NCBI GenBank assembly: GCA_037146775.1
Contig: JBAWWL010000004.1
Coordinates: 22,471 to 86,470 of the forward strand
Source: Candidatus Omnitrophota bacterium
Lineage (GTDB): Bacteria; Omnitrophota; Gorgyraeia; Duberdicusellales; 4484-171
Length of the DNA: 64,000 nt
Direction of reading: 5' to 3'
The position numbers and the translations under genes were made by a program. Within the stretch, counting starts at the first letter, position 1, and each line of letters begins with the position of its first letter. Positions 15,141 to 63,932 of this stretch are shown here, piece by piece. The notes beneath the pieces were generated by a model. The model saw only the letters and a program-made list of their open reading frames with translations, was not told the DNA's origin and made no database searches.

Positions 15141-15143
15141 CGA

Positions 15144-26027: not shown

Positions 26028-26030
26028 ATT

Positions 26031-26106: not shown

Positions 26107-26109
26107 ATT

Positions 26110-26373: not shown

Positions 26374-26464
26374 ATTTTAACTCCTTAATTCGCAGAAATC
26401 TAACCGATATATAGGATAGGCGCGAGGGATAATGGCAGAAGCGGATTGCCGCGGATATCCGCTT

Positions 26465-27190: not shown

Positions 27191-27243
27191 AAGCGCAACT
27201 CCTTTGTAAATAGAAATAAATCCTCGTTAATATACTCGCGGTT

Positions 27244-37053: not shown

Positions 37054-37144
37054 TCCTTTTATGCCTGGAATCGCGTAAACATATGCACCATTATTCTTTA
37101 CGCAATATGGCTATCTCTGCATAGGAGTAACGCGTGGGGTGTCT

Positions 37145-47649: not shown

Positions 47650-48609
47650 TTACGGTCCGGGGTGAATTATTTTGTAGTCGCGGATAAATACTATTTTTTC
47701 AATCAGAGACTGCGGGCCAGTTTTAATTAATAACTCGTCAAGATAAGGATCGGCGGAAGAAATACCTAACTCCAGTTGATACATGTTCATATTTTCTTTT
47801 TCGCCAATCCAGCGAAAATCCGCGTAAAAACTGTTGTTTCTATAAAGTTTTACCGTAGTCAGCGGTTTGTTGAGATATGCTATTATTTTGAATGGCACTT
47901 TTTCGTATGGGAAACCGTATGCGTGAAGTTTAAAATCGCTGGCGCCAGGATATGCCACAAAATGTATACTCATGTCTCCCCACTTACTGTGAACTTCCGC
48001 TTTTATGGGGATGGTATCCGACAACAGTTTAAAATAGTCTCTCACTCTTTCCCACTGATTTGCATAGGCAAGAAACAATATCATGTGGTTAAAGGCTTTT
48101 TTATAATCTTGTTTTTGAATATAATATTGAGCTAAATACCGGTGTGGTTTATAGTTTTTCCAACTCAATTGTGCGGCCCTTAACAACTCCCCTTCCGCGT
48201 GAGGATTCTCCTTTTGGGCATAATAATACCCAAGTTTTAAATGATATTCCCAATTGATAGGATTTAAATCAATGGCCTGCCTGTAAAGCCCCTCTATCTC
48301 GTCATCTTTGATTACTAAGGCATTTGCCAGGCCCTCCCCGGATGCTTGCAGCATAGTATCGGCCTTGAGAACAATATATTCAGCGTTACCATTATGGTAC
48401 GCTATCGCTTTGGTTAAAAAAGAAAGTACGGTAGTATAATAATCATTCTCCGCATAATCAAGTGCGGTTTTTTTATGGTTGACGGCTTTTTCAAAAAGGA
48501 ACATCGATGCTGTATTGGTATAAAGAAAACATGCACAGACAGCGATCGCAAGGATAACTATGCTGGATAACCAATAAAGCATTTTTGTTTCAAATATCTT
48601 TTCTCTCAT
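47650..48609 (-). CDS. Membrane-anchored TPR-like protein, unknown function
   Basis: 319 aa with an N-terminal TM helix followed by helical-repeat content. The first gene of an EPS-type operon. Confidence 0.45.
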   Translation of the reverse strand: MREKIFETKMLYWLSSIVILAIAVCACFLYTNTASMFLFEKAVNHKKTALDYAENDYYTTVLSFLTKAIAYHNGNAEYIVLKADTMLQASGEGLANALVIKDDEIEGLYRQAIDLNPINWEYHLKLGYYYAQKENPHAEGELLRAAQLSWKNYKPHRYLAQYYIQKQDYKKAFNHMILFLAYANQWERVRDYFKLLSDTIPIKAEVHSKWGDMSIHFVAYPGASDFKLHAYGFPYEKVPFKIIAYLNKPLTTVKLYRNNSFYADFRWIGEKENMNMYQLELGISSADPYLDELLIKTGPQSLIEKIVFIRDYKIIHPGP

Positions 48610-49928
48610 GTCTCCTCTTCGTTATCGGAAGAAGGGTGCAAGAAACGAGTGTAAGCACATTTATAGCTTAAGCCCATAATAAGCCAAAACAAAAAGGTAA
48701 CCGCAGGAATATGAAAATTGAACTCAAAAATGCTATGAAATAATACACCAATGAGGCCACACCATCCTCCTAAGACAATATTTTGCACAAAAGGATCGTG
48801 TCGTTTCGTTATTTGCCCGAAGATATCTTTTAGTATCTTAAAAATAAAAAAGAAATAGAATAAGGCACCGATTAACCCGATTTCTACGATCATTTGCAAG
48901 TATTCGTTATGCAAATATTTATAATAGACGGGAAATGTCGCGAATGTTTGATAGATAGGGAATATATACGAAAAATTACCCAATCCGCACCCACACAAAG
49001 GAAAATCACGCGTTATCGCAAGAGAGTCCCTGGAAATAGCCCACCTTCCCAGCAAGCCTTCCTTTAAAAAAATGAATGTCTTTTTTAGCGGGCCGGGACC
49101 GGCAACCGCCAATAAAAGCATACTTACCGCAACCACTAAAATAATGACTCCGTATTTTGCCATATCGGCATTTTGCCGAAACAGCAGATAGCACATCACC
49201 ATTAAAGACAACAAAAGACTGAAGGATCCGGCACGGGAAAGCGAAAGGAAAATACTAGCCGAAATCATCGCGGCAATAAAGCCGAAAATGAGCTTTACAA
49301 AAATATTGCGGCACGATAAGCCGTACCCGATAGCTAAAGGTACAACCATAATCATATATCCGGCGAAATGATTGGCATTACCGAAGGTACTGAATGATTG
49401 CGTTTCTACTGCTCCAAGCACAGTGTATTTCTTAAAGAGGCCATAAAAAGATAGGAGGAGGCCCCAAAATATAATCACCAGGACGATCCTTTGAAATTGG
49501 CGTTTTTTTTCCAACACATTCATTGCAATTATAAATACACTGAAAATTGAAAAGAATTTTACTGCTTCCTCCTTGAGAGGCAGCGTGTAAAAAGCTATTC
49601 GTAAAAATTCTTGTGCTTTTGCAGAAAGTGCGTTATGTTCCACCAAGGCAGCCGTATGAGGAGAAAAAATCCGCAGTATAAAGGCGGGTAAAGAAATTAA
49701 CTGCAAGACGATTGTGCAAAGAAAAAAACCAATAAGGCATAGGTACGGAGGATATAGAATTTTATGCGGTCTGGAAAAAAGTAATCTGCCAATAAATAAT
49801 ATTATCAGGAGCAGGCAAACAAGCTGAAGAATAGCCGCGGATAACGGCGTAACCGCAGCGTAAAAAAGAGGAGAAAAGATAATAAGAAAGAGTAGGACAC
49901 ATTCGCAAGATACAGACCAACTCATCAT
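48606..49928 (-). CDS. O-antigen ligase/polymerase family (Wzy_C) membrane protein
   Basis: 440 aa and polytopic. Wzy_C-like block with LSLSRAGSFSL and H..EYLQMIVEIG. Confidence 0.7.
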   Translation of the reverse strand: MMSWSVSCECVLLFLIIFSPLFYAAVTPLSAAILQLVCLLLIILFIGRLLFSRPHKILYPPYLCLIGFFLCTIVLQLISLPAFILRIFSPHTAALVEHNALSAKAQEFLRIAFYTLPLKEEAVKFFSIFSVFIIAMNVLEKKRQFQRIVLVIIFWGLLLSFYGLFKKYTVLGAVETQSFSTFGNANHFAGYMIMVVPLAIGYGLSCRNIFVKLIFGFIAAMISASIFLSLSRAGSFSLLLSLMVMCYLLFRQNADMAKYGVIILVVAVSMLLLAVAGPGPLKKTFIFLKEGLLGRWAISRDSLAITRDFPLCGCGLGNFSYIFPIYQTFATFPVYYKYLHNEYLQMIVEIGLIGALFYFFFIFKILKDIFGQITKRHDPFVQNIVLGGWCGLIGVLFHSIFEFNFHIPAVTFLFWLIMGLSYKCAYTRFLHPSSDNEEET

Positions 49929-49937: not shown

Positions 49938-51782
49938 TCAGGGCTTTTCACGGGTGGAAGAGTAATAATAGTGGTGATAATAGTAGCGGTCGTGTGCCAC
50001 CTCTGTATTGTTCAACACTGCACCAACCACTTTGACTTTAGTATCAATAATCTTTTTCGCTTCCAAGATATATTTTATAGAGGTGGAGCCAGTTTTTATA
50101 ACAAATACCACACCATCACATTTGTCTCCTAAAATCAGCGCTTCAGCGACGTTTAAAATCGGTGTGGAATCAATCACAACTCTTCGAAATTTCTTTTCCA
50201 GTTCTCGCAAAATATTCGGCAGCCGTTCCGAACTGATAAGTTCGGTGGGATTCGGCGTGTAAGGACCCGCTGAAAGCAGAAACAGGTTGGGAATAAAGGT
50301 AGGAGTAACCGCCTCATCCAGAGAAGCCGTTCCTGCCAAAACACTGCTTAAGCCATGTTTTGGTTTAAGGTCGAATGTCTTGTGCAGGTTGCCTTTACGC
50401 ATATCTCCATCGACCAATATCGTCGGTTCTTTGGCTTGAGCGAATATGATTGATAAATTACAAGAAATCAATGTTTTGCCTTCGCCAGGGACTGAACTGG
50501 TTATCACCATAGTGCGTAAAGGCTTGTCTTCGGGAAATGAGAAAATCAAAGAGACCTTTAAGTTTCTAAACGCTTCAGCAATGCGTGACTTTGGTTTGAT
50601 ATGAGAAACTAAATTTCTGTGTTTTGGTTCTCTTAATTCTCTTTTTGCGGAAGGCAGATATCCCAAGAATGCGAATTTCGCATAAAACTCAACGTCGTCG
50701 GATGTTTTTAGGCTGGAATCTATCCTTTCTAAAAACAAAGAGAGGAATATACCAAACATTAAACTTCCCAACATGGCCACGGGAATATCGGTAAAAGGCC
50801 GGGGCCGATAAGGGCTTTTTGGTTCTACTGCTGCGTCCAGCACCCGCATACTCGAGAGAGTTAACTCCTTAGACACATCTAATTCCTTGGCGCGTGTTAA
50901 GAAATCGTCATAGAGAGACTTGTAGGTTTCAACCTTTCTTTTTAAGATTCCGTATTCGGCCATTTTCTCCTGTAACGCAAGGCGGATATTGGTTTCTTCT
51001 GTTAATTTATCCACAACCGACTTCGCCTGGCTTGTTAACGCAAGCATTTTAGGATGTTTGTTTTTGTACCGTTTTGACGCCTCTGCAATTTGCGTATCGA
51101 GCTGCGCTTTCTGCGCTTTCAAGCTCTCAATGAGCGCTTCGGTTTTTGATTCGATATCCGGAACGGTGACTATTTTGTTTATCCGGAGAAAATTATTCAA
51201 TAATTTTTCTGCCTCATTCAACTTTAACAGCGTATCCGTCAGTTGATTTTCTAAGAACGAGACGCCATACTTAGCAGTGCCTACCCTTCGCTCCACATCC
51301 TGGTAGATGAATTCGCGTGTCCACGTATTCGCTATAGCGGTAATTTTTAAAGGGTTTGCGCCTCTTACCGAGACAACAGCAATATTACTGAATTTTAGCT
51401 GTGATACCTTTACCATAGCAAGCAGTTGTCCGGCGGGGTCGGGAGAGTGTATGAATTCCGGGTCGCGGTCTAATTCTAATTTTTTTATTACCCGCTCGGC
51501 TAACGAACGTGACTCCAGAATATTTAATTGCGTGAGATAATAGTCTCGGCCAACTACGGGCTGCCCCTGATATACATCTTCAACTTTTCCGGTAATTTTT
51601 GGTTTTTCATATTCAATGATTACCGTTGATTTTACCTCGTATTTTTTTGGTGTTGAAAAATCGTAGAATGCGACCGTCCCGGTTGCAAATACAAAAATAG
51701 CGAAAATAAGCCATATGTGCTTCGTTAGTATGGCAACATAATCGTTTGCCGTTAATTCTTTTACTTCCGGTGGTGGTATCAT
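49938..51782 (-). CDS. Polysaccharide co-polymerase / BY-kinase (Wzc-like tyrosine autokinase)
   Basis: 614 aa with an N-terminal Wzz domain containing a TM helix, a Walker A motif (SSVPGEGKT) and a C-terminal Tyr cluster (YYYHHYYYSS). Confidence 0.85.
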   Translation of the reverse strand: MIPPPEVKELTANDYVAILTKHIWLIFAIFVFATGTVAFYDFSTPKKYEVKSTVIIEYEKPKITGKVEDVYQGQPVVGRDYYLTQLNILESRSLAERVIKKLELDRDPEFIHSPDPAGQLLAMVKVSQLKFSNIAVVSVRGANPLKITAIANTWTREFIYQDVERRVGTAKYGVSFLENQLTDTLLKLNEAEKLLNNFLRINKIVTVPDIESKTEALIESLKAQKAQLDTQIAEASKRYKNKHPKMLALTSQAKSVVDKLTEETNIRLALQEKMAEYGILKRKVETYKSLYDDFLTRAKELDVSKELTLSSMRVLDAAVEPKSPYRPRPFTDIPVAMLGSLMFGIFLSLFLERIDSSLKTSDDVEFYAKFAFLGYLPSAKRELREPKHRNLVSHIKPKSRIAEAFRNLKVSLIFSFPEDKPLRTMVITSSVPGEGKTLISCNLSIIFAQAKEPTILVDGDMRKGNLHKTFDLKPKHGLSSVLAGTASLDEAVTPTFIPNLFLLSAGPYTPNPTELISSERLPNILRELEKKFRRVVIDSTPILNVAEALILGDKCDGVVFVIKTGSTSIKYILEAKKIIDTKVKVVGAVLNNTEVAHDRYYYHHYYYSSTREKP

Positions 51783-51785: not shown

Positions 51786-52841
51786 TTAGAAAAATCCCTC
51801 ATCTACCATTACTACATCGCCCTCGCCCAAAAGTATATCTTTTGATTTATCGCCGCTTTTCAGAAGATAACCAACCGGTACATTAAACGTTTGCCGCTTC
51901 CCTTTTATCTCTTCTCGAATTACCCGTACCGCGTTTTGATTTGCAGTCTCAGTAAAACCCCCTGCTCTTGCGATGGCATCGGTCACGGTAATACCGCGCT
52001 TAAAATCGTAGCTACCCGGTTTCTTTACCTGCCCAAGAACAGAAAATTGTTTGTATGCGGTGACAAAAACCGTATCGTTGTTTTTTAATAAAAACGATTT
52101 GCCCTGTTGATCCAAATTTATTATGTACGCGTTGATTCCTTTTTGTTCTTGCCTTTCAACTTTAATCTTGGTAACATCGGCGTCTTCTTTCGCTCCGCCG
52201 GCAAGAGCAACGACATCAAGCAACGCGGCATCTTTTGTGAGATAATAATTTCCGGGTCTATTCACTTCGCCCAATACAGAGACTTTTCCGTATTCGCCTA
52301 CGATAATCCTGTCGGAAGAATTGATAAGAAAATCCCTTCCTTGTGTTTCTAGGTTCAAAATATATTCCCGTTCAACATTATTTTCTTTCCTGACGACTTT
52401 TATTTTAGAAAGATCAGCGGACTCTTTCGCTCCGCCGGCAAGAGCTATGGCATCCAATAACGTTAAATTACCTTTAAGCTCATAGCCGCCTTCGCGGTTG
52501 ACCTTGCCTACAAGGTAAAACTTTGAATATTCACGTACAAATATGCTTACCTGCGGATTCACTAAATACTCTTTTTCAAGCAATTCCCCTATATTGGTCG
52601 CCGCTTCCTTTACGTTAAAGCCGACGACGGTTATTTCTCCGATGAAAGGATATGTAATTTTTCCGTCCTCGGAAACTTTTACGGTTTTATTTAAATCGGG
52701 CTCGTCATATACAGAAATCTCCAGAGTGTCGCCTGGTTTGATCGTATACGTTGTGTTACTATTTTGAGAGAACAGCAATGCTTCTTGATTACAAAAAAAC
52801 ACGATAACGAAAAGCGCAAGTATAGAAATTATTTTTTTCAT
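51786..52841 (-). CDS. Polysaccharide export protein (Wza-like; Poly_export + SLBB repeats)
   Basis: 351 aa. Signal peptide, a PGDTLEISVYDEPDL Poly_export motif and repeated soluble-ligand-binding beta-grasp segments. Confidence 0.8.
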   Translation of the reverse strand: MKKIISILALFVIVFFCNQEALLFSQNSNTTYTIKPGDTLEISVYDEPDLNKTVKVSEDGKITYPFIGEITVVGFNVKEAATNIGELLEKEYLVNPQVSIFVREYSKFYLVGKVNREGGYELKGNLTLLDAIALAGGAKESADLSKIKVVRKENNVEREYILNLETQGRDFLINSSDRIIVGEYGKVSVLGEVNRPGNYYLTKDAALLDVVALAGGAKEDADVTKIKVERQEQKGINAYIINLDQQGKSFLLKNNDTVFVTAYKQFSVLGQVKKPGSYDFKRGITVTDAIARAGGFTETANQNAVRVIREEIKGKRQTFNVPVGYLLKSGDKSKDILLGEGDVVMVDEGFF

Positions 52842-54280
52842 TAGAATTCTGCGGTTAGCTCCAAATCCCCAAGATTATTCTTATATTTGTTTGTTGCTAT
52901 ATTAGACATCCTGGTACCATACAAGTATCCGATTCCAATTGTCAACCACTTTTTTAATTTATATTCCGGCTTTAAGGTAACATAAAGATATTTGTCTCTG
53001 GTATCCGGTTCTGAATTCTGCTCTTTGTAGCCGACACCCGTAGCAAAACGAAGGCGTTTATTAAAAAGAGGCAGGTAGTTGCAGCCAAGCAAAACACCAT
53101 GGATCTTTGCCGTACCCTCATCAAGCAAATTTGCCTCGCCCAATCCGTTAACAAGTTCCAAGTTATATACTAACCGCGGTGTTTGTTGATAGTCGAATCT
53201 CATTTTGACGGTAGGGCCTGCGTATTTTCTTTGGCCTGAGGTGGGATCGGTACTTCTATAGCCATATTTTAGCGAACCGCTTAATTTGTTGAAAGCGCTG
53301 CTTACGCCCCACCAGTATTTGTTATAGGTCCAGCGGCCCGGCTTGGACTTTATCGTATCTATCCAGCCATGTACATAATCAAATAGTAAATTCGTTTTGG
53401 GAGTTATTTGCAATGAACTTACCAGCGCCAGATTATTACGCTTGCGGTTGCTGGAAACATAATCGTCTTGTTGGTATACCGTGTAGTTATGATAATATTG
53501 CAGCCCCCATTTAAGTTTCTTAAAACTCGTCTCAAAACTGCTGCCGTAATCAAAGAACCACATATCGATAAATTCACGGTTAGTTGCCTCGTTGTATACC
53601 TCAAGCTCGCCACTGGTAGCCCTTCGTCTGTAGATATTGGTCGTCACCGACACCCCATAGTTTTTCGCATTATATTTTACGAAACCGCCACCATAAGGAA
53701 GCTGGGTATCCTTCGCATGATTACGCACATAGCTGACAAGTTCCGTTCCGGCAACAAGACGATAATCGAGGCCTCCTTTGGAAATTTTATTTTTAATCTC
53801 TATACCGGGATCCGCTATGGTAACAAAATCGGACATTTCGTTGTCGTTATCCAGCAAAATATTATCGGTAAATTGTTCTTTTACCTTTAGATACGGACTT
53901 ACATTTTTCAAGAAACGCTTGACCTTAAGTAACTTTTCTTCCTGCCAGAGACGACGTTCTTTTTTTTCAACGACCGCGTCGGTTTCTGCCGGAATAGTCT
54001 CGGGGACCGGGGATACCGCACCTTGTTGTTCTTCCGGCGCAAGAGTCGATGATGCAGTGACCGTACTCATCTCAAAATTTTTACTGGGAGTGGTTTCGTT
54101 CGCGTAATAATCCAGAGTGTAAGAAACAAGGTCTTTTCGGGGTATGCCCGCAAACGCCGGCATGCACAGTAAACCTATTATACCGAGAAAAAATATGACT
54201 CTCAATTTTATATTTCCCAAACAAATATGCCCCGCTTCATAATAAATACCGCAAAGGATTATCAAAGCAATCAACAACAA
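52841..54280 (-). CDS. Outer-membrane beta-barrel protein (C-terminal Phe), EPS-locus associated
   Basis: 479 aa with alternating amphipathic beta-strand-like segments and a terminal ...LTAEF. The true start may be the internal TTG at 54204, giving the signal peptide MRVIFFLGIIGLLCMPAFA. Confidence 0.45.
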   Translation of the reverse strand: MLLIALIILCGIYYEAGHICLGNIKLRVIFFLGIIGLLCMPAFAGIPRKDLVSYTLDYYANETTPSKNFEMSTVTASSTLAPEEQQGAVSPVPETIPAETDAVVEKKERRLWQEEKLLKVKRFLKNVSPYLKVKEQFTDNILLDNDNEMSDFVTIADPGIEIKNKISKGGLDYRLVAGTELVSYVRNHAKDTQLPYGGGFVKYNAKNYGVSVTTNIYRRRATSGELEVYNEATNREFIDMWFFDYGSSFETSFKKLKWGLQYYHNYTVYQQDDYVSSNRKRNNLALVSSLQITPKTNLLFDYVHGWIDTIKSKPGRWTYNKYWWGVSSAFNKLSGSLKYGYRSTDPTSGQRKYAGPTVKMRFDYQQTPRLVYNLELVNGLGEANLLDEGTAKIHGVLLGCNYLPLFNKRLRFATGVGYKEQNSEPDTRDKYLYVTLKPEYKLKKWLTIGIGYLYGTRMSNIATNKYKNNLGDLELTAEF

Positions 54281-54295: not shown

Positions 54296-54835
54296 TTACT
54301 TTTTTAGCAAGCTGGCCGCGATAGAGAACAATAAAAATGTATGTGCCAGGCGCATTAACACAAACGAGCTTATCAGTGCCGGGATGCCAAGATTCAATTT
54401 CATGGCGAAAGCTAAAGCAACGCTCAGTATCGCCAAAAGGAAACAGGTAATTGCTACAATCCGCATACTTTTACCTCCTTTTGTTTTTTCGAACACATTA
54501 AGAATTCTTCTGTTGATAAAATCTTTCGCCTCGTCATCGACGTTAATAAATTCAACCGCAACGTCGAAACCGCCTACAAGCTTAAGTGGAATTGCGCGCA
54601 AAATCTTTCCTACTGCTTTTACCGGCTTTGGATAAGAAGGAAAGTTAATCTGCAATTCTATAAATTTCCCCGGAGTCACGGTAACATCCGAATGGAAGAG
54701 CACGCCGCCGGCCGAAATGTTTCTGATAAAACAAAGCGTGTCCTTACTTTCTTTTTCGTCCAACACCCGATATTTCACAAGATGATGTACGCCTAAGCGT
54801 ACAAATTTTCTTCTTTCTTGAGGAAAGTTACCCAT
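54296..54835 (-). CDS. PilZ domain protein with C-terminal transmembrane segments
   Basis: 179 aa with RRKFVRL and NISAGGVLF PilZ motifs. The C-terminal 60 aa are hydrophobic (two TM helices). Confidence 0.65.
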   Translation of the reverse strand: MGNFPQERRKFVRLGVHHLVKYRVLDEKESKDTLCFIRNISAGGVLFHSDVTVTPGKFIELQINFPSYPKPVKAVGKILRAIPLKLVGGFDVAVEFINVDDEAKDFINRRILNVFEKTKGGKSMRIVAITCFLLAILSVALAFAMKLNLGIPALISSFVLMRLAHTFLLFSIAASLLKK

Positions 54836-54846: not shown

Positions 54847-56493
54847 CTAATAACCTATGTATTTTTTAATCTGTTCCAAATACCACTCCGTGCGCCTAAA
54901 TTTCGGACGTAATTCTCTGACACGCAGAAATTTTTCCCTGGATTCTTCATAGTTACTGAGTGTATAATACACCACGCCTAAATTATAGAGCGCATCAACG
55001 TAATCGTCCCTTAAGGTGACTGCTTTTAAAAAGTTTTCTTTTGCTTCGCTGAATTTTCCCGCCTCCCAAAGAACGTACCCCAAATTATTATACGCAAAAG
55101 CATAGGCCTGGTCAATATGAATTGCTTGTACGAAGTACTTTTCTGCCTTGATATAATTTTCTTTCAGCGTATAGAGGGTGCCTAAATTATACACATACAC
55201 GGAAGAATAAGGATTGGCCGTAACAACTTGCTCGTACCGAGCTATCGCTCTATCAAGCATGTTGAGCTTATAATATACGAAGCCGGTATTTGCGCTGGCT
55301 CGCACATTTCCGGGGGCGATTTTCTCGGCGGCCGATGCTGCTTGTTTTGCTTCTTGCGGTTGATTCAAAAAATAAAATGCCAGCGCCTTACCACTGTACG
55401 ATACTGCGTCGGTAGGATCAAAACTTATTGCAATATCAAATTGTTCCTGTGCTTCGTGATATTTACCTTCTATTAACAACCGTATTCCTTCTTCTAAGAA
55501 TATGAACCCTTTTTCCCGGTGATAACGCGCCGGCAAGGGCATTAGATTTTTTTTGATATAGGTACGGAACCTTGCGTCAGGAACTGACTTATACAGATCC
55601 ATAAAGGCATTGTAGGCTTTTTGTTCTTTTCCTCCTTCGTAAAAGTAGCTGCAACCTACGCGAAATTTCGAAAACTGGTTTAAACTCGACGAAGGGTCTT
55701 CTTGAAATGCTTCTTCCCATATCTGCCTTGCTTTATCACTCTCCCCCATCCGATTTAACGTATCTGCGTGCTCATATCTAATGAAATCATTCATCTGGCG
55801 GGAAAGCTTTCCTTTTATCTGCGCAAATATCTCCTCAGCTTTTTCGTATTTACCCTGCAATTTATAAATAAGAGCTGCATACAATTTTGCCTTCAACCCA
55901 ATTTTACCCTCAGGCGATACTTCTGTCGCCTTAGCGAGATAAACTTGCGCATTATCAAATTCTTTGAGCAAAATATAACTGCGGCCGATTTCTAACAACT
56001 TGTTTTGTAGATTGTCGCCTTTATATGTCGGCAGTGCGTCCTTAATGCGTTGGATTGTCCGGCGCACGGTTTCTTTGTCAATTTTTCTTTCTTGAGGAGC
56101 TATGTTGGTTAAAAAATTATCCAGCATGGCAGTAAATGGTGTGCCTGCCGACTTCTTTTCTCCGGCGGCGCCGGAAAGAAAATATCTTATATCGCGCCGT
56201 TGGTCAACAGTAGAAGTTGTTGACAATGTTTGCGCTGAAAATTCAATCTTAGCAAGCGTAACAGTGTCTAGGTCGGCTTTTGCCAGCTCCATAAGAAATG
56301 TCTCGTCGAGAATTTCTTTTATAGTCGCTATATCTTTTTCGTTCTCTATTGTGCTTAATTTTTTTAATGAGAGTCTGATGTTGGACAAAGAAGCATCCAG
56401 AAGGAAGCGGTTGTAAGTTATAAAAAATAAGGCAGCGACAGCCAGGGTAATAAGTAAGGGAATAAAGTGCTTAAAGATGTTTTTTTTTCCCAT
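54847..56493 (-). CDS. Multi-TPR repeat protein with N-terminal membrane anchor
   Basis: 548 aa with at least 8 TPR-like 34-mers (W-LG-Y-A-F-P motifs in the C-terminal half). Confidence 0.7.
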   Translation of the reverse strand: MGKKNIFKHFIPLLITLAVAALFFITYNRFLLDASLSNIRLSLKKLSTIENEKDIATIKEILDETFLMELAKADLDTVTLAKIEFSAQTLSTTSTVDQRRDIRYFLSGAAGEKKSAGTPFTAMLDNFLTNIAPQERKIDKETVRRTIQRIKDALPTYKGDNLQNKLLEIGRSYILLKEFDNAQVYLAKATEVSPEGKIGLKAKLYAALIYKLQGKYEKAEEIFAQIKGKLSRQMNDFIRYEHADTLNRMGESDKARQIWEEAFQEDPSSSLNQFSKFRVGCSYFYEGGKEQKAYNAFMDLYKSVPDARFRTYIKKNLMPLPARYHREKGFIFLEEGIRLLIEGKYHEAQEQFDIAISFDPTDAVSYSGKALAFYFLNQPQEAKQAASAAEKIAPGNVRASANTGFVYYKLNMLDRAIARYEQVVTANPYSSVYVYNLGTLYTLKENYIKAEKYFVQAIHIDQAYAFAYNNLGYVLWEAGKFSEAKENFLKAVTLRDDYVDALYNLGVVYYTLSNYEESREKFLRVRELRPKFRRTEWYLEQIKKYIGY

Positions 56494-56810: not shown

Positions 56811-57128
56811 ATGAATAAAAAAATATACTTTGTGTGGTTAGTATGTATATTTGTGAGTGTGGGTATTGCGTTGCCGCTCGTAGGCCAGTCATCCCGACCA
56901 GCCAAAAAAGTGGATGGGAACCAATCCTCAATGTTTAGCGAACCAATGGTGCAGGATACAGAAAAAAGCGATTCGTCTCCTGCCGGCCCGGGGAAAGAGA
57001 AAAAAGTAGAGCCAAAGAAAGAAGAGTCGTTGAAGGATTTGGTTATTACCGATATAGTAGTGCCTATCACTAAAGATGAGGTATCAAAAGAAGAAGAGCC
57101 TGGAAAAGAAGACCAAGAAAAATATTAA
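56811..57128 (+). CDS. Small secreted Lys/Glu-rich protein (only plus-strand gene in window)
   Basis: 105 aa with a signal peptide (MNKKIYFVWLVCIFVSVGIALPLVG), followed by a low-complexity K/E/P-rich region. Strong RBS and candidate promoter. Confidence 0.5.
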   Translation: MNKKIYFVWLVCIFVSVGIALPLVGQSSRPAKKVDGNQSSMFSEPMVQDTEKSDSSPAGPGKEKKVEPKKEESLKDLVITDIVVPITKDEVSKEEEPGKEDQEKY

Positions 57129-58429
57129 TCTTTACGCTGATCCAAGATAAAACAACTTCTACATTCCTGTTTAGCTCTCTTTTTCACTTCGGCGGCAATA
57201 TTCGTTACTTCCGCATAGCTGGCGATGGCGCGGCATTCATTCGTGACTCCGGCGAGCGATATGGTCATAAGAGGAAATTGTTGGATAGTGTTATCGCGGC
57301 CATGCGCGATTATATAGCCCCTTTCTAAGTCTTCCTTGTCGTACAACGTACGAATACGGCTGTTGAAAGCTTCTATGATAGCGGAAGCAATGGCTTGTGT
57401 TCGTTGGGGAGTGGTAAGAATAATGAAATCATCTCCTCCCTCGTGACCGAGAAAATCATCGGTATTGCCTTGAGATTTAAGTGCTTCTTTAAAAACATTG
57501 CTGGTCAACTTTATTGCTTCATCGCCCTTAGCAATTCCGTATTTATCGTTAAAGGCCTTGAAATTATCCAAATCACAGTAGACTACCGTAAATTTCTTTT
57601 GGGTCTTTATTCTTTCTTCAACAGCCTCCCTAATGACGATGTTACCGGGCAACTTGGTTAAAGGGTTGGCATTTTCGGCGCGCTCTTTCATTTTTATCAA
57701 TGCCTGAGTCATAAAATTAAATGTGCTCGCCAATTCCTCAAGTTCATCGCTAGTCAGTATGTTAACTCGCAAATCGAGACGGCCGGATGCGATAAGTTTC
57801 GCCGCGCTATTAAAAACTTTTATTGGTGCAATAATTAAGCGGGAGAGAGAAAAACCTAAAATGATATTTACGATAATAAATAGAATTCCGATGAGAAACG
57901 CCGGCTGATATACCTGCTGGTATACCCCCCAAATTCCTGCCAAGGAAAAGAAAATTTTCCCTATATAATTTACCTTCCCGCCTTCGGCAAGGGGGATATA
58001 CACGGAAAACGTTTTCCGTGACTCATCAATAACCACCTCCCCCTCTATCGACTCGTTTCTTTTCAATTTATCCAACATTAACACATCATCGAAATTTACT
58101 CTATCGCCCTGCAATGTCTTTTCGGTAGAAAAAACTATTTTTTCCTGTCGGTTATATATATATCCGTGAGTAATTTCTTCGGACTGTTTCAAAGCAAGTA
58201 TTCTTTTGCGCAAAAAATCGAGCTTCTTTTCTTCGGGAAGAGGAAAGGCGGCCATATTATCCCACGTACTCTTTAGGACCGAATAAATAATCTGGGCATG
58301 TGAGCGGTGGAATCTGTTGAGCAGGTTTATCTCGTGAGAAAGCTGCACCGCCACGAACAAGGCAACAGTAACCACCGTAAAGATAGTAAGCAGTATAAAA
58401 ATTCTGCTTTTCAGTGTAATCGTTTTCAT
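57125..58429 (-). CDS. Membrane sensor diguanylate cyclase-type protein (GGDEF domain, GGDDF variant)
   Basis: 434 aa with an N-terminal TM helix, a periplasmic region, a second TM helix, a HAMP-like linker and a GGDEF domain (NPLTKLPGN..., GHEGGDDFIIL). Confidence 0.75.
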   Translation of the reverse strand: MKTITLKSRIFILLTIFTVVTVALFVAVQLSHEINLLNRFHRSHAQIIYSVLKSTWDNMAAFPLPEEKKLDFLRKRILALKQSEEITHGYIYNRQEKIVFSTEKTLQGDRVNFDDVLMLDKLKRNESIEGEVVIDESRKTFSVYIPLAEGGKVNYIGKIFFSLAGIWGVYQQVYQPAFLIGILFIIVNIILGFSLSRLIIAPIKVFNSAAKLIASGRLDLRVNILTSDELEELASTFNFMTQALIKMKERAENANPLTKLPGNIVIREAVEERIKTQKKFTVVYCDLDNFKAFNDKYGIAKGDEAIKLTSNVFKEALKSQGNTDDFLGHEGGDDFIILTTPQRTQAIASAIIEAFNSRIRTLYDKEDLERGYIIAHGRDNTIQQFPLMTISLAGVTNECRAIASYAEVTNIAAEVKKRAKQECRSCFILDQRKD

Positions 58430-58474: not shown

Positions 58475-59596
58475 CTAAAAACGCTCGATAGATTCGAAAT
58501 TCGTCTTGACCATTTTAAAAAAAATACCGAGAACTTCTCTGGAAATACTCGGATACTTCAAGAACTCCCACAAAAGAAGGGAGTGGTTTTCAAAGTCAGC
58601 AGCCTTTTCGATAATGTCGGTTTTTTTCTTGATGAAAGAAAAAAGCTTTTCGATATCTATATCGTTGAGCTGCGAAAAAACTTGACGCGCCTTAAGGCTC
58701 ACTTCAATTTCTTTCCCGAATTTTTTGAACCAGCGCGAGCTATATTTGTCGTTCTCTCCTTTTACTATACACTCGGCAAGTATTTCCGCTGCGCGCATAC
58801 CCATATAGATCCCTCCATAGCTTAACGGCTTTACCTGGGAAGCGCTGTCTCCAACCAAAAATATGCCATCCTTCGCCAGTGGTTTAAAATAAGCCAGAGG
58901 AACGATTCCGGCAAATTTTTCCAAAACCTCACCGGATAATTTCCTTTCTTTGATGAAGCTAAGTAAATCGTGGTAGGGATTCTTGGAGAGGACACCGACA
59001 CGTACCACACCGTCAGTTTCCGGAATAATCCAATAGAAATAAGGCTTTTTTAAATACACTTCCACCATATCGCTATGTTGCAGCTTCAGCTTCATTCGAA
59101 ACTGTACACCTTTTAAGTAATCCATATGATTATCGGTAACAAATTCTCTGACCGCCGAACGCGCCCCATCTGTACCCACCACAATATCCGCTTCCATCGA
59201 ACCCCTGTCGGTTTCGATAAGGTAGTGGTTATTTTCTTTCTCCAGCCCCAAAAACCTGCTCTCAAAACTAATTTGCAATCCTTCGCCTAACTTTTTATCG
59301 AATTTTTCTCGGTCAATTACATATGCAACTTCTTTTCTGTGAATAGGAATAACTTCTTTACCTATATAGATCACTGCTCCGTTAATGGTATTAAGCACGC
59401 AGTCTTTGGGGAGCGGAAGCTCGGCATCATCGAAGACTTTCTTTCCCACCAGACCCGCACAATGAACGGGCCGGCCGATTTCTTTATGTTCCTCGATCAA
59501 TAATGACCTTATACCGGCCTTCGATAAAAGCTGGGCGAGATAACATCCAACAGGCCCCGCCCCAACAATAATTATTCTCTGTTTTTTCTCATGCAT
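58475..59596 (-). CDS. Geranylgeranyl reductase family FAD-dependent oxidoreductase
   Basis: 373 aa with GAGPVGC (FAD) at the N-terminus and GDSASQVKPLSYGGI, matching the GDAAG...GGGI signature of the GGR family. Confidence 0.75.
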   Translation of the reverse strand: MHEKKQRIIIVGAGPVGCYLAQLLSKAGIRSLLIEEHKEIGRPVHCAGLVGKKVFDDAELPLPKDCVLNTINGAVIYIGKEVIPIHRKEVAYVIDREKFDKKLGEGLQISFESRFLGLEKENNHYLIETDRGSMEADIVVGTDGARSAVREFVTDNHMDYLKGVQFRMKLKLQHSDMVEVYLKKPYFYWIIPETDGVVRVGVLSKNPYHDLLSFIKERKLSGEVLEKFAGIVPLAYFKPLAKDGIFLVGDSASQVKPLSYGGIYMGMRAAEILAECIVKGENDKYSSRWFKKFGKEIEVSLKARQVFSQLNDIDIEKLFSFIKKKTDIIEKAADFENHSLLLWEFLKYPSISREVLGIFFKMVKTNFESIERF

Positions 59597-59662
59597 AATG
59601 TTTTCTTAATGACTGTGTGCTTGTAATTCTTGATTCGCGATGTTCTTTGCTGAAACCGGAAT

Positions 59663-60259
59663 TTATAATTTGTTATTCCTATGCTCCCATCTTCCTACAA
59701 AACTAATCCAAATGGATAAAAAAATAATTTTTAAATCTAGTAAAAAACTTCGCTCTTTTATATATTGCACATCCCACCTCAGCACTTCCTCGTCGCACGC
59801 GTGTTTTGGAGCAAATACCTGGGCTAAGCCGGTTAAACCCGGTTTTATTTTAAGTCGGCGGGCAAAAATTTCCATATCTTTTCTTCCTAAGGAAGACTGG
59901 AATATTTTTCCCTGGAAATCTTTTGAAATACCGTAATAATCAATACTGTATGGCCGGGGGCCCACAAAAGACATTTCGCCTTTTATAATATTGGTCAGCT
60001 GCGGTAGCTCATCCAAAGCAGTCGCACGCAGAATCCTTCCGACTTTTGTAACACTTAAGGTACCGCCTTTCATCGAGCGAAATTTAAGCATGTTGAATAA
60101 TTTCCCGTCCATACCTAAAGATTTTTTAATATACAATATCGGCAGGCCGTCTTCCAAAAATATAAGTACCGCGACTATGCTTATGACAGGAAAAAATAAA
60201 AATAGGCCAACAGACGAAAGAATACAATCAAAGATTCTTTTGGCGAGTAGATAACTCAA
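59663..60259 (-). CDS. Small monotopic phosphoglycosyl transferase (bacterial sugar transferase, PglC/WcaJ-C type)
   Basis: 198 aa with an N-terminal re-entrant helix and a KRxFD...DELPQ...GxMSxVGPRP signature (KFRSM, LDELPQL, GEMSFVGPRP). Confidence 0.85.
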   Translation of the reverse strand: MSYLLAKRIFDCILSSVGLFLFFPVISIVAVLIFLEDGLPILYIKKSLGMDGKLFNMLKFRSMKGGTLSVTKVGRILRATALDELPQLTNIIKGEMSFVGPRPYSIDYYGISKDFQGKIFQSSLGRKDMEIFARRLKIKPGLTGLAQVFAPKHACDEEVLRWDVQYIKERSFLLDLKIIFLSIWISFVGRWEHRNNKL

Positions 60260-60586
60260 GTATTACACCTTTTTTGTTTCTTGTATTGTTTTATTCTCTT
60301 AACCACAATTCTCTTTCGCATAAATAAAGTTCCCTTCAGCCACCGTACGTAATACTCAAAAACTGCGGGTGAAAATGGACGGCCCCGAAGATTTCAGACA
60401 TCCTACCCTGATTTTTTTGAATATGTTGGCATAGATATCCGGCACAACCTCGATTGGTGTGACGTGGCGGTGTTTTGCGTTGAATCGGGAACATGTTATG
60501 CCATATTAAAAAGAGCTGATACAACGTATTGTACCACGCGAATGACCTTTAAGAAAATGTTTCATTTTCATATTACAGATATGATA

Positions 60587-61621
60587 CTACAAGAATCTCT
60601 TGGCAAAAGCGAGTATACCCTGGTGCCAGGCAACCCTATGTGTGATCCCTGTAGTGTGTAACTCATTTTTGTGCTCCAAATACCACTGGTACGATTTTAT
60701 GAGCGCTTCTTTGTTGCTATATTTTGGGGCCCACCCTGCTATAGTTTTTATTTTATCTACACACACAAAAGAATCTTTGTCCGCCGTTGCATAAATCCAT
60801 TTATAGAGGGGCGATATTTTTAATTTTTCAAATATCGCCAACAACATCTTTACGCCCCGGGCGGGAGTACACATAACCCGTGATCCTGTGTGTGCATAAT
60901 TGCATAAGGCACCGACATCCTCTTCTACTGTTCTAAATTCCGCTGCGCCGATATTGAAAACGTCGTTTACTTGCTCTTCGGGGGCAACAAGAAGCAGGTA
61001 TATTGCATCGGCCAAATCTTCAACCTCTAACAACTGATAACGATTCTTACCATTTCCTATAATAGGTATTCTTTTGCCGCTTTCTATCCAATCATATAAT
61101 ATCTGAAAAACGCCCAGCCTGCCGGGACCAATAAAACTTTTCGGCCGCACAATCGGAATACACATTCCTTTTTGTCTATATTCCTGACAAATCAGTTCGG
61201 CCTCTATTTTACTCGAACCATAGGGGCCAACACCGACAAGCGCGCTGTTTTCGTAAAGAGGATGTGTTTTAGGAATACCATATACGGCCGTGGACGACAC
61301 AAAAATTACCTTCCGTATCTGCAGGGTTAAAGCAGTTTCTAATATATTTTTTGTACCGGTAACGTTTATCTCGAAAATTTCTTTCCGTTTCCACAATGGC
61401 AGGGCTGCGGCAGCGTGAACGATCACATCGCCTTTTCGTAATACTCCTTCAAGTTGTTTTCTGTCTCTTACGTCTACGTTGTAATAGATTGCGTGAGCGG
61501 GATATTCTTGAGGATCTATGGGGGCGATATCTAGAACAGCGATACTTTCATATTTATCTGCTAGTTGCCTGCACAAATGGTAGCCCAAAAACCCAGCGCC
61601 GCCGGTTACAACTAATCTCAT
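60587..61621 (-). CDS. NAD-dependent epimerase/dehydratase (extended SDR)
   Basis: 344 aa with VTGGAGFLG (Rossmann) and YGSSK (YxxxK). Confidence 0.85.
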   Translation of the reverse strand: MRLVVTGGAGFLGYHLCRQLADKYESIAVLDIAPIDPQEYPAHAIYYNVDVRDRKQLEGVLRKGDVIVHAAAALPLWKRKEIFEINVTGTKNILETALTLQIRKVIFVSSTAVYGIPKTHPLYENSALVGVGPYGSSKIEAELICQEYRQKGMCIPIVRPKSFIGPGRLGVFQILYDWIESGKRIPIIGNGKNRYQLLEVEDLADAIYLLLVAPEEQVNDVFNIGAAEFRTVEEDVGALCNYAHTGSRVMCTPARGVKMLLAIFEKLKISPLYKWIYATADKDSFVCVDKIKTIAGWAPKYSNKEALIKSYQWYLEHKNELHTTGITHRVAWHQGILAFAKRFL

Positions 61622-61809
61622 GGTACCCTCCCAAGAAAGTTTGTGGTATATGATGCATAAAATTGAAAAATATTTTTTGAGGCAAGTTTGAGCCGGTTTT
61701 ATTTTTACTAACGTTATTGTAGCAAATAAATCGCTTCAATTAAAATCAATCTTGGATCTTCTTGCCATCTAAAATTCAGCAAACCATACTTCCCTAGTAC
61801 TACAAACTG

Positions 61810-62682
61810 CTAAAACCCAAGATAAATTACCGCAACGCAGACGCTCACCCACAATAACAGATTTATTTGCAACTTGCGGTCAGAAAGTAAAATACGAGTG
61901 GGGTCGCCGTCGAGATAAATCTTATGAATAAGATAAAGATAACGAAAAAGTCCGTAGTATACAAAGGGAATACTGTAAAGCAAGTGGGTTGTCCCGAATT
62001 CTTTTAGCGTTCTCGCATCTACCGTATAAAGAGCATAAAATACCACGATTGAGGAAGTAATTACCGCAATCATTTGATCGATAAAATAAACGTTATATTT
62101 TGCGAGTATTTGGCGATGTGCGGCGGCTTTGTGTTCTAACAACCGCAATTCTTGCCGTCGCTTATTAAATCCCAGGAAAAGCGCCAGCAAAACAATCATA
62201 ATAACGATCCAATGAGACATGTGTACCGCCGCAATGACACTGCCAGCCAATATGCGCAAAAGGAAAAAACCACTGATACAGAATACATCGATGATTACTT
62301 CTTGTTTTAGCCATTTTGAATAAAATAAATTAAATATAAAATATATAATAATTATTGCACCAAAATATCTGTCGACCATCAAGGATAATACGAATGCAGT
62401 GACGCATAAAATGAATGCTGTGGTTTTCGCTTTTGATATACTGAGTTTTCCTGAAGCGAGCGGCCTCAGGCGTTTCGTAGGATGCACTTTATCTTTTTCT
62501 ATATCGAAGAGGTCGTTCACCACATATACCGCCGAAGATATCATAGAAAATAAAACAAAAGCAAGTGCAGTTTTCAGATTAAAGGGGAACACGAACATTT
62601 TTTTTCCAAAAAGCAATGGGAGAAAAATGAAAAGATTTTTAATCCACTGCTGCGGTCTTAAGGAAATTAGTAAATAGTTCAT
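61810..62682 (-). CDS. UbiA-family prenyltransferase, decaprenyl-phosphate 5-phosphoribosyltransferase (DPPR synthase)-like
   Basis: 290 aa and polytopic. NDLFDIEKDKVHPTKRLRPLASG matches the NDxxDxxxD motif region and the PTKRxRP block typical of DPPR synthases (Rv3806c-like). Confidence 0.65.
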   Translation of the reverse strand: MNYLLISLRPQQWIKNLFIFLPLLFGKKMFVFPFNLKTALAFVLFSMISSAVYVVNDLFDIEKDKVHPTKRLRPLASGKLSISKAKTTAFILCVTAFVLSLMVDRYFGAIIIIYFIFNLFYSKWLKQEVIIDVFCISGFFLLRILAGSVIAAVHMSHWIVIMIVLLALFLGFNKRRQELRLLEHKAAAHRQILAKYNVYFIDQMIAVITSSIVVFYALYTVDARTLKEFGTTHLLYSIPFVYYGLFRYLYLIHKIYLDGDPTRILLSDRKLQINLLLWVSVCVAVIYLGF

Positions 62683-63932
62683 CGTATATTTTTACTCTTT
62701 ATGCTCCGGATATTGTGCATTTCTAAACAACTCTCTATGCTTAAAACAAAAATAAAGTAAAGCAATATATGCGAGTATAATCCCAGCCTCATATCGCCGG
62801 TCAGGCCGAAAGAAGAAACAAAGTTATCATACAGAAATAATAATGATAAAAATACAAAATCAATTCTTTTCCCAAGAAACAAGAATCTTTTTTTAACAAC
62901 TAAACACCACCCGATACCGAGAAACAAAAATATATTTTTTACCGTTACAAGGCGCCTCAAAAAAGAGATGTGTTTCTTGGAATCCAATGCGCGTAAAGGG
63001 AAATTTAATCTTACGAAATTACCAATATAGTTCTTTGTTGCCCTCAAAGGATGCCTATAAATATCTTCAAAGAATAATTTGAAATATTCACTATCTTCCT
63101 GGGCCAACGTAGGTATTGCCTCTTTATTCGTTTTGTGTAATTTTTCTTTGGTTGAGCACTTCATACCCAAATAAAAAAAGTTCCCGCCATGAAATGAAAG
63201 CTTATATTGGCCAAAGGCGTTCTTGTTTCTTATTAAAACCGGTGAAATAATTATAACCGATACTAAGAAAAATAAAACTGCTTCTTTAAAAAAATACTTT
63301 CGGTGCGTAATGAGCGAGGCGAGTAGAAAGAATAAAGGCAGCAACTGAAATTTGTTTCTTACCAAAATTAAACATCCAAAAAAAATACTGGCAATAAAAA
63401 TATGCCTTTTCTTATAAGATATAAAATATCTTAGGCTAAACAATAAAAACAAGAAAAACAAGAAAATGCCCAGGGTCTCGGAAAGAATAAGGCTTGGAAA
63501 ATAAACTATTATATGGTTGGTAAAATACAAAAAAATAGAAATATATCTTACGGGTTCCGATGCAACTATCAGACGCACTATCTGCAAAAATAGAAAAAAA
63601 TTAGCTATTCCTAAAACATACTGGGTTATTACCACCGGAACGATCTTGTGCCCGAATATTTTAAACAGCGCACCTAAAAAAATCGGGTAACCGATTTGAT
63701 ATATTCCGTGCGGCGTTTTCCCGTCAAACGTATATCCCAATCCACGCGCCAGGTTACCTCCCGTTACTCTATAAACTAACTGATCGCCGGGCAATAAGCG
63801 ATCGTTATTTAAGAAACCTTTTGCAATCCCATACCCAACCATCGAAAAACCGTACACAAGAAAAATTATCAATAATATTTTCCTTGAATTTTTTTTGCCG
63901 GTAAAGATGTTTCGCAAATACTTTAAGAACAT
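62679..63932 (-). CDS. GT-C fold membrane glycosyltransferase (GT39/GT83 ArnT/PMT-like)
   Basis: 417 aa with about 10 TM helices. N-terminal loop-helix architecture of dolichyl/undecaprenyl-phosphate-sugar-dependent transferases. 4-nt overlap with the DPPR-synthase-like gene. Confidence 0.55.
   Translation of the reverse strand: MFLKYLRNIFTGKKNSRKILLIIFLVYGFSMVGYGIAKGFLNNDRLLPGDQLVYRVTGGNLARGLGYTFDGKTPHGIYQIGYPIFLGALFKIFGHKIVPVVITQYVLGIANFFLFLQIVRLIVASEPVRYISIFLYFTNHIIVYFPSLILSETLGIFLFFLFLLFSLRYFISYKKRHIFIASIFFGCLILVRNKFQLLPLFFLLASLITHRKYFFKEAVLFFLVSVIIISPVLIRNKNAFGQYKLSFHGGNFFYLGMKCSTKEKLHKTNKEAIPTLAQEDSEYFKLFFEDIYRHPLRATKNYIGNFVRLNFPLRALDSKKHISFLRRLVTVKNIFLFLGIGWCLVVKKRFLFLGKRIDFVFLSLLFLYDNFVSSFGLTGDMRLGLYSHILLYFIFVLSIESCLEMHNIRSIKSKNIR

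Follow-up and report, generated by a model that had tools for sequence, protein, structure and literature searches.

A probable lipid-linked pentofuranose module at the head of an exopolysaccharide locus in Candidatus Omnitrophota

Introduction

Decoration with pentofuranoses (ribo-, xylo- and arabinofuranose) influences the antigenicity of surfaces, and mycobacterial decorations of this type serve as drug targets. In Citrobacter youngae, a UbiA-type polyprenyl phosphoribose synthase (PPPRS), a flippase and a GT-C glycosyltransferase add α-ribofuranose side chains extracytoplasmically (Kelly et al., PNAS 2024, PMC11127046). The C. youngae GT-C enzyme, ORF12, is the founder of family GT136; a GalE-like short-chain dehydrogenase/reductase (SDR), ORF13, switches the sugar to xylofuranose, and homologues of DprE1/E2 accompany arabinofuranose systems (PMC11127046). 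Here we examine a group of genes in a 64-kb stretch of DNA from Candidatus Omnitrophota (contig JBAWWL010000004.1), called the window below, within which the region under study covers positions 58475–63932 on the minus strand. Omnitrophota are an uncultivated phylum whose members are often ultra-small. The region holds five co-oriented open reading frames (ORFs), which encode, in transcription order, a GT-C membrane glycosyltransferase, a UbiA-superfamily protein, an SDR, a small phosphoglycosyl transferase and a geranylgeranyl reductase (GGR)-family enzyme.

We conclude that the first three of these genes probably form a lipid-linked pentofuranose module of the kind described by Kelly et al. 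2024, heading an exopolysaccharide locus regulated by cyclic di-GMP (c-di-GMP). The module adds a case to a type of system known since 2024 and does not define a new kind. An earlier interpretation of this DNA, made from the letters without database searches (the sequence-only reading), had considered such modules poorly characterised outside Actinobacteria, which does not hold, as the system has been defined biochemically in Citrobacter (PMC11127046). Its core proposal, a UbiA protein of the decaprenyl-phosphate phosphoribosyltransferase (DPPRS) type that feeds a GT-C enzyme, accompanied by a pentose-changing SDR, is upheld by family scoring, the active site, a fold search and the conserved neighbourhood. 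The same reading placed the SDR, the PglC-like phosphoglycosyl transferase and the reductase ahead of the UbiA gene; the identities stand (Epimerase, Bac_transf and TIGR02032 matches), and the order applies to the coordinates only, the three genes being downstream in transcription.

Results

The UbiA-family protein is a predicted polyprenyl phosphoribose synthase

The UbiA gene (61810–62682, minus strand) encodes a protein of 290 aa, and an identical protein from a Candidatus Omnitrophota metagenome-assembled genome (MAG) is listed at NCBI under the name 'decaprenyl-phosphate phosphoribosyltransferase'. The protein scores 268.7 bits (E = 6e-80) with NCBIfam model NF008977 for this enzyme, for which the curated cut-off is 234, and 88.9 bits with Pfam UbiA, and the other models of the superfamily (heme O synthase, UbiA, chlorophyll synthase/ChlG, GGGP/DGGGP, EboC and PRK12884) give 60 bits or less. 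Both sequence blocks that had been read from the translation, NDxxDxxxD and PTKRxRP, are present, as N56-D57-x-x-D60-x-x-x-D64 and H67-P-T-K70-R-L-R73-P. When all PDB sequences were searched, the best match was Rv3806c from M. tuberculosis (8J8J, E = 3.6e-41), with residues 7–287 of 290 aligned to residues 20–300 of 302, and the runner-up, a DGGGP synthase, matched at 7e-10 over one third of the protein.

Using the alignment, we mapped the Mg and phosphoribosyl pyrophosphate (PRPP) ligands listed in the Rv3806c structure paper (PMC10994848) onto the window protein. Nine of the 12 ligands are identical (R9/R22, K15/K28, Y53/Y70, N56/N73, D60/D77, K70/K87, R73/R90, Y121/Y138 and K126/K143, given as window/Rv3806c), and three are changed, Q135 to N118, Y157 to F140 and K208 to Q191, the last lying beside the invariant R190. 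The Y157-to-F substitution occurs in some mycobacteria too, and K28 and Y70 of Rv3806c, which bind the 5′-phosphate, are not conserved in other UbiA enzymes (PMC10994848). Since both of these residues are conserved here, the protein groups with Rv3806c and not with the MenA/UbiA quinone prenyltransferases, the other grouping that had been considered for it. Judged by its sequence, the UbiA protein is a PPPRS of the Rv3806c type, that is a polyprenyl-phosphate 5-phosphoribosyltransferase with predicted catalysis, and not a quinone or lipid prenyltransferase.

The overlapping gene encodes a GT-C fold glycosyltransferase

The GT-C gene (62679–63932, minus strand) ends on the UbiA start, the stop of the one and the start of the other sharing four bases, ATGA, so that the overlap reported earlier is real. 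Its product has 417 aa and about 9–11 transmembrane (TM) helices, and an identical protein is found in NCBI under the name 'glycosyltransferase family 39 protein'. The sequence signal is weak, with a PMT_2 score of 24.7 bits under a cut-off of 26.1. With 12 homologues as input, AlphaFold2 gave a model with a predicted TM-score (pTM) of 0.86 and a mean predicted local distance difference test score (pLDDT) of 78, and when it was searched against the PDB with Foldseek, the top 25 matches were almost all GT-C enzymes, including PglB, STT3, ArnT, DPY19, ALG9/ALG12/ALG3, PMT, EmbB and PimE. The family keeps D50-x-x-x-Y54 in the first extracytoplasmic loop, after TM1, together with E152, P199 and R235-N236, and these residues resemble the catalytic region described for ArnT and ORF12. 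The enzyme is small and has no C-terminal carbohydrate-binding domain. The ArnT/PMT-like GT-C identity, marginal on sequence alone, is thus confirmed at the level of the predicted structure and the fold search.

To see which genes travel together, homologues of the window genes were mapped onto 80 genome loci carrying UbiA relatives, of which the 35 closest are mostly from Omnitrophota. Of these 35 loci, 29 encode a large polytopic membrane protein no more than 5 kb from UbiA, often in a gene that overlaps UbiA. Nine of the ten directly adjoining polytopic proteins that were scanned match PMT_2, PMT or GT87, and all 46 polytopic candidates together gave 12 PMT_2 and 4 PMT matches. At the family level the UbiA/GT-C pairing is therefore conserved, and the rapid divergence of the GT-C sequences is what acceptor-specific enzymes would be expected to show. 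Close relatives of the window GT-C protein are few, with only three found at 51–56% identity.

An SDR subfamily accompanies polyprenyl phosphoribose synthases

The third gene (60587–61621, minus strand) encodes an extended, GalE-like, NAD-dependent SDR of 344 aa, which scores 141 bits with Pfam Epimerase. Invariant in its family are T6-G-G-x-G-x-x-G13, D31, S109/S110 and Y134-x-x-x-K138, and the family also carries a distinctive C-terminal tail, H328-R...Q-x-I-L. Among the 35 closest loci, about 25 have the SDR gene directly behind UbiA, amid gene content that varies in other respects. The same association is seen far outside the phylum: a tblastn search of 72,556 plasmid records at E ≤ 1e-30 returned matches in only 17, at least 12 of which lie within 12 kb of a PPPRS homologue (99 records carry one), several directly adjoining it. 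These linked pairs occur on four haloarchaeal replicons (46–48% identity), in Nonomuraea and on rhizobial symbiosis plasmids. No SDR homologue was found in the unannotated Burkholderia multivorans locus in which one was sought.

The haloarchaeal plasmid of Haloterrigena sp. KLK7 (L092, 6133–13285) encodes a PHP-domain phosphoesterase, a PPPRS, the SDR, two GT-C proteins and a DMT transporter, and its PHP protein is a candidate 5′-phosphatase. The KLK7 and Omnitrophota SDRs are 47.5% identical, which is strikingly high across domains. In the rhizobia, pNGR234a (Sinorhizobium fredii) and pRCCGE531b (Rhizobium sp. CCGE531) carry a HAD-fused PPPRS, an SDR, a GT-C candidate, a GMC oxidoreductase, an SMR transporter and a member of the SDR subfamily, which in CCGE531 is annotated as an epimerase and is 33% identical to the window SDR over its full length. 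CCGE531 was listed among candidate systems by Kelly et al. (PMC11127046). On these data, members of the SDR subfamily are dedicated to partnership with PPPRS across Omnitrophota, haloarchaea, actinomycetes and rhizobia, and by analogy we propose that the window protein may be an epimerase of lipid-linked ribofuranose.

The region divides into a pentose module and an exopolysaccharide locus

In the 80 loci, the phosphoglycosyl transferase is seldom near UbiA and the reductase never. The comparative loci thus separate the region into two parts, and the exopolysaccharide locus also exists without the pentose module: the GT-C, PPPRS and SDR genes are the pentose module, and the phosphoglycosyl transferase and reductase genes belong to an Omnitrophota exopolysaccharide locus that occurs without UbiA. 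The inclusion of these last two genes in the pentose module, as in the sequence-only reading, was therefore abandoned. The two parts also adjoin in relatives L083 and L084, where the order is a 520-aa protein, UbiA, SDR, GT-C, a Gfo/Idh/MocA oxidoreductase, a hexapeptide acetyltransferase, the phosphoglycosyl transferase, the reductase and then GGDEF, TPR, PilZ, BBP2 and Wza genes. In the window and in both relatives, module and exopolysaccharide genes point the same way, and in L083/L084 the module is enclosed in a more extended series of glycan genes (GT4, DUF354, acetyltransferase and radical SAM). Compared with these relatives, the window has GT-C ahead of UbiA and lacks the two sugar-modifying genes; remnants of the Gfo/Idh/MocA and hexapeptide-transferase genes were sought in the spacer between the SDR and phosphoglycosyl transferase genes and elsewhere in the window, and none were found.

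Two long non-coding spacers interrupt the region, one of 327 bases between the SDR and phosphoglycosyl transferase genes (60260–60586) and one of 188 bases between UbiA and SDR (61622–61809). The same spacers measure 10–60 bases in relatives or are filled by extra genes. They are consistent with a recent rearrangement that placed GT-C upstream of UbiA. Promoter and terminator scans stayed at background level and gave nothing convincing.

The phosphoglycosyl transferase (59663–60259, minus strand, 198 aa) is a small monotopic enzyme of the PglC type with a TTG start and an AAGGTG ribosome-binding site. It matches Bac_transf at 165.7 bits over profile positions 1–176 of 179 and TIGR03025 at 181 bits, below the cut-off of that model, and its translation shows a D-E dyad (ALDELPQL) and a PRP motif (VGPRP). 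It is predicted to initiate the polysaccharide repeat unit on polyprenyl phosphate.

The reductase (58475–59596, minus strand, 373 aa) is a GGR-family FAD enzyme, with a TIGR02032 score of 170.4 bits against a cut-off of 158.8. Its closest solved relative is the archaeal enzyme 3OZ2, a digeranylgeranylglycerophospholipid reductase (E = 2e-25), with which its Cys, YxWxxP and GD (LVGDSA) motifs align (HCAG with RCGE, YFYWIIPE with GYIWVFPK, and LVGDSASQVKPLSYGGI with LVGDAARLIDPITGGGI). The reductase is widespread in Omnitrophota, and we compared nine contexts, namely the window, two close relatives and six distant homologues at 46–62% identity (L081, L083 and L093–L098). It lies inside a glycan gene cluster in all nine. 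The gene directly before it is the phosphoglycosyl transferase in the window and in five of the other eight contexts, among them L093 and L095; L096 and L098 have an epimerase there. In several contexts the two genes overlap by 4–8 bases, the partner being the phosphoglycosyl transferase (L093, L095) or an epimerase or TPR gene (L096, L097). Around the six distant homologues, the genes downstream are usually GGDEF, TPR, PilZ, BBP2 and Wza, with no UbiA nearby; a GGDEF cyclase follows the reductase in L081, L083 and L093 and is close by in L096 and L098.

As a partner of UbiA the reductase was rejected, the two co-occurring in none of the 80 loci. Because the clusters of its distant homologues lack UbiA, and because PPPRS and reductase loci are widely separated in the Omnitrophota genome CP070807 (see Discussion), we assign it to the exopolysaccharide pathway. 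Its placement suggests a role in a carrier lipid or a lipid-anchored glycan. A GGR of Haloferax volcanii saturates dolichol phosphate (Naparstek et al. 2012, as cited in PMC10821996), and in the literature we found no paper tying a GGR to bacterial phosphoglycosyl transferases. The most economical role that we can infer for the window enzyme is that it partly hydrogenates the polyprenyl carrier, and this idea of carrier saturation gains indirect support from the embedding of the reductase in glycan clusters in every context examined.

The reductase gene is followed on the same strand by a HAMP-GGDEF diguanylate cyclase (57125–58429; GGDEF 58 bits, HAMP 40.5 bits) and then, by Pfam matches, by a TPR protein (54847–56493), a PilZ c-di-GMP receptor (54296–54835), a BBP2-type outer-membrane barrel (52841–54280), a Wza-like exporter (51786–52841), a Wzc-like co-polymerase/tyrosine kinase (49938–51782) and a Wzy_C-type polymerase/ligase (48606–49928). 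The best NCBIfam matches of the export proteins are PEP-CTERM/XrtA-type or Eps models, mostly below their cut-offs; the sole model of an export part above its cut-off is TIGR01007, a generic tyrosine-autokinase domain, at 160.9 bits against 108. The order of the export genes is repeated in relatives. The GGDEF cyclase is the regulatory input of the exopolysaccharide locus, which is thereby linked to c-di-GMP.

Variant loci and other genes of the window

In some other Omnitrophota and Bacteroidota loci, PPPRS has beside it a DprE1-like FAD oxidase or else a GMC oxidase accompanied by additional SDRs. Therefore the phylum uses several variants, and both epimerisation routes exist in these lineages. 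In richer PPPRS sets (the Omnitrophota-like loci L010, 10877–14826, and L054, 8435–13428, and the rhizobial plasmids L089 and L091), a GMC oxidoreductase and two extended SDRs are joined by a small Gluconate_2-dh3-like protein and an SMR/EamA-type transporter. Such a set could provide a way of epimerisation that uses an oxidase and differs from DprE1/E2.

Distant UbiA relatives (45–50% identity) in MAGs of Aminicenantes, Ignavibacteria, Chlorobi-like bacteria and Bacteroidota pair with two proteins, a DUF362 member of about 360 aa and an EamA transporter of about 300 aa with 10 TM helices, and show no SDR or GT-C pairing. These genes lie near position 10000 in each of L036, L037, L044–L047, L051, L055, L056, L059, L060, L064, L065, L071, L074, L076, L077 and L080, and the pairing may represent a different use of lipid-linked phosphoribose. 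Locus L078 (1748–12165) is a perfect mirror image, with the phosphoglycosyl transferase, proteins of 416 aa and 360 aa and UbiA arranged around a divergent UbiA pair, and is most likely a palindromic assembly artefact. The sole record with a PPPRS homologue (36% identity) in the phage collection is MT837543.1 (H26), a 6.6-kb 'Bacteriophage sp.' from human faeces. It recalls the Caudoviricetes example in which Kelly et al. (2024, PMC11127046) saw a possible module for seroconversion.

Further from the region under study, positions 35056–39899 of the window encode a protein of 665 aa, whose N-terminus is a PilZ domain and which has a region weakly resembling GH76, and, downstream, an 802-aa TPR/DUF3857/transglutaminase-like protein; a GH26-like protein is encoded at 30997–31959. 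These genes may provide further c-di-GMP-linked glycan-processing functions close to the exopolysaccharide locus. A separate cluster on the minus strand (14131–28788) contains two ketoacyl synthases (21826–24308), an AMP-dependent ligase (27244–28788), a classical SDR (16651–17424), a B12-binding radical SAM protein (15144–16601), a cyclase-family protein (19677–20474), a major facilitator superfamily (MFS) transporter (17949–19070) and an amidohydrolase, and may make an unusual lipid or polyketide-like product.

Discussion

Proposed pathway and points against it

In the pathway that we propose, the UbiA-type enzyme would move 5-phosphoribose from PRPP to polyprenyl phosphate at the cytoplasmic face, as its family membership and active site suggest, and a phosphatase encoded outside the window would then strip the 5′-phosphate. 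With NAD bound, the GalE-like SDR would epimerise the lipid-linked ribofuranose at C3 or C2 to xylo- or arabinofuranose, a step to which the cross-domain linkage of SDR and PPPRS and the precedent of ORF13 both point. A flippase would carry the donor outward, and the GT-C enzyme, to which the fold search assigns a fitting fold, would hand the pentofuranose to an acceptor outside the cytoplasm, at the periplasmic face. The acceptor would be the polysaccharide begun by the adjoining PglC-type transferase and exported by Wzc/Wza/BBP2; the glycan of the exopolysaccharide locus is the most likely one. The possible products are ribo-, xylo- or arabinofuranose. The ribosyl and arabinosyl products named by the sequence-only reading stand as candidates in an incomplete list, to which xylofuranose has to be added (PMC11127046).

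Several observations weigh against this reading. No 5′-phosphatase (HAD-PRP, PAP2 or PHP) was found in the window among ORFs of at least about 180 aa or by a PAP2 motif scan, and the UbiA protein carries no extra HAD-PRP domain. Neither was an SMR, GtrA, EamA or MATE flippase found in the window, where a scan for small multi-TM ORFs was negative and the only other polytopic proteins are the MFS transporter and the Wzy_C protein. With phosphatase and flippase both unfound in the window, two required steps have no assigned gene; the flippase gene may lie beyond the window, whose end is 68 bases upstream of the GT-C start, so that the upstream neighbours are outside our view. A phmmer search of the 80 loci at E ≤ 10 detected no homologue of the window GT-C near other PPPRS genes beyond its three close relatives, and the link of UbiA to GT-C is thus shown at the level of Pfam families. 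In profile comparisons, the window GT-C was weakly related to the GT39-annotated neighbour of a Legionella PPPRS (hhalign probability 76%) and unrelated to the Vibrio or haloarchaeal PPPRS partners. Its position relative to UbiA also differs in relative L083. The nearest solved relatives of the SDR are UDP-glucose 4-epimerases and dTDP-glucose 4,6-dehydratases (E of about 1e-21 to 1e-18) and not DprE2. Finally, PPPRS (L035) and the exopolysaccharide/reductase locus (L093) lie about 0.5 Mb apart in CP070807, and the assignment of the acceptor therefore draws on adjacency in this one lineage.

Other PPPRS loci vary in how they supply the phosphatase and flippase steps. Flippase-type genes stand beside PPPRS in L054 (EamA/SMR-like), Lactococcus (GtrA), Vibrio (EamA) and Rhizobium (SMR). 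The Lactococcus plasmid system has a HAD phosphatase with its GtrA protein and the Vibrio system a HAD fusion with its EamA protein, both inside polysaccharide clusters, and Legionella adelaidensis offers a minimal pair of PPPRS and GT39 without phosphatase or flippase.

The arabinose route of mycobacteria, which the sequence-only reading had used as its model, is not evident here. The ORFs of at least about 180 aa that were scanned in the window contain no FAD_binding_4 (DprE1-type) domain, no DprE2-type SDR was recognised by locus (the only classical SDR of the window belongs to the unrelated ketosynthase cluster), and, as stated above, the phosphatase and flippase are likewise missing from the window.

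Alternative interpretations

It is possible, if rather unlikely, that the module is real and that its acceptor is a protein, a lipopolysaccharide-type glycolipid or another envelope glycan, the adjacency to exopolysaccharide genes being an accident of this lineage. Pilin arabinosylation in Pseudomonas is an example of a protein acceptor. The separation in CP070807 speaks for such an acceptor, as do the extreme diversity and shifting position of the GT-C partners of PPPRS genes and the lack, in the window GT-C, of the carbohydrate-binding module with which ORF12 and Emb hold polysaccharide acceptors. It is set against the common orientation of module and exopolysaccharide genes in the window and L083/L084, the longer glycan run around the module in those two relatives, and the Vibrio and Lactococcus plasmid PPPRS systems, which likewise lie inside polysaccharide clusters.

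We consider it improbable that the SDR acts as a common epimerase or dehydratase of nucleotide sugars that feeds the repeat unit, in which case the module would add ribofuranose only and the adjacency of UbiA and SDR would reflect mere shared membership of glycan loci. The solved structures closest to the SDR are enzymes of this sort, its sequence reaches no NCBIfam equivalog, and its gene lies inside a polysaccharide locus; but the subfamily is rare on plasmids and, where it occurs, mostly near PPPRS, haloarchaeal replicons included, the UbiA–SDR order persists through Omnitrophota loci of otherwise differing gene content, and ORF13, also GalE-like, was shown genetically to turn lipid-linked ribose into xylofuranose (PMC11127046).

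That the UbiA protein is a MenA/UbiA/DGGGP-type prenyltransferase, with the reductase making a saturated isoprenoid lipid or quinone, has next to no likelihood and is refuted at the level of sequence classification, for although the superfamily fold and Asp-rich motif are common to both, the reductase is 2.2 kb from the UbiA gene and JGI auto-annotation labels homologues '4-hydroxybenzoate polyprenyltransferase', the competing family models score far below the DPPRS model, the phosphoribose-binding residues are kept, and the reductase, never linked to UbiA in the 80 loci, is present in exopolysaccharide loci without it.

Significance

If the pentofuranose module is as we propose, the lipid-linked pentose route extends to the Omnitrophota in a reduced form, in which the GT-C is minimal, PPPRS is not fused to a phosphatase and no flippase is linked. 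The SDR subfamily, found with PPPRS in both Bacteria and Archaea, could mark pentose-modifying systems, and the reductase, as a fixed part of Omnitrophota polysaccharide loci, gives a testable lead on the saturation of bacterial carrier lipids. More tentatively, and with considerable doubt on our side, the locus may hold a GGR-type hydrogenation of the Omnitrophota glycan carrier to a dolichol-like form, or a single-protein, GalE-style SDR that replaces DprE1/DprE2 and possibly makes arabinofuranose. To our knowledge, dolichol-like carriers are so far known mainly from archaea and eukaryotes.

Comparison with known systems

The window module shares with the Citrobacter O1/O2 system (ORF15-ORF14-ORF12, with ORF13 optional) a UbiA-type PPPRS, here predicted to use PRPP, with a GT-C alongside, a GalE-like SDR, which is optional and alters the pentose in Citrobacter and may do so here, and a site within a polysaccharide gene cluster. 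In contrast to Citrobacter, the window PPPRS has no fused HAD phosphoribose-phosphatase domain and no MATE/SMR flippase gene nearby, and the GT-C, at 417 aa, is small, has no C-terminal carbohydrate-binding module and is PMT_2/GT39-like by a weak sequence signal. The surrounding locus resembles a Wzc/Wza (PEP-CTERM-like) exopolysaccharide system, whereas that of Citrobacter is an ABC-transporter O-antigen system, and the host here is an uncultivated member of the Omnitrophota.

With the mycobacterial decaprenyl-phosphoarabinose pathway (Rv3806c, Rv3807c, DprE1/DprE2 and Emb/Aft), the module has in common the first enzyme, whose homology runs end to end and whose PRPP site is kept, and, as proposed here, a final transfer by a GT-C outside the cytoplasm. 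It differs in that a FAD_binding_4 oxidase (DprE1), a classical-SDR DprE2 by locus and a PAP2 phosphatase are all absent from the window; the adjoining SDR is extended and GalE-like, and the window GT-C matches EmbB weakly (Foldseek rank 23). For the reductase, the nearest parallel is the GGR paralogue of Haloferax volcanii that acts on dolichol phosphate, which, as far as the account in PMC10821996 goes, is a GGR-family flavoenzyme tied to the carrier lipid of glycosylation. Here, unlike in Haloferax, the host is bacterial, the proposed link to a carrier is drawn from gene context, and the gene is embedded in an exopolysaccharide locus.

The PPPRS-SDR-GT-C clusters of haloarchaea and rhizobia link the same SDR subfamily (46–48% identity in haloarchaea and 33% in rhizobia) to PPPRS and GT-C. 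Compared with the window, both kinds of cluster add candidates for the missing steps: in Haloterrigena these are a PHP-domain phosphoesterase and a DMT transporter, and in the rhizobia PPPRS is fused to HAD and is joined by a GMC oxidoreductase, a second SDR and an SMR transporter.

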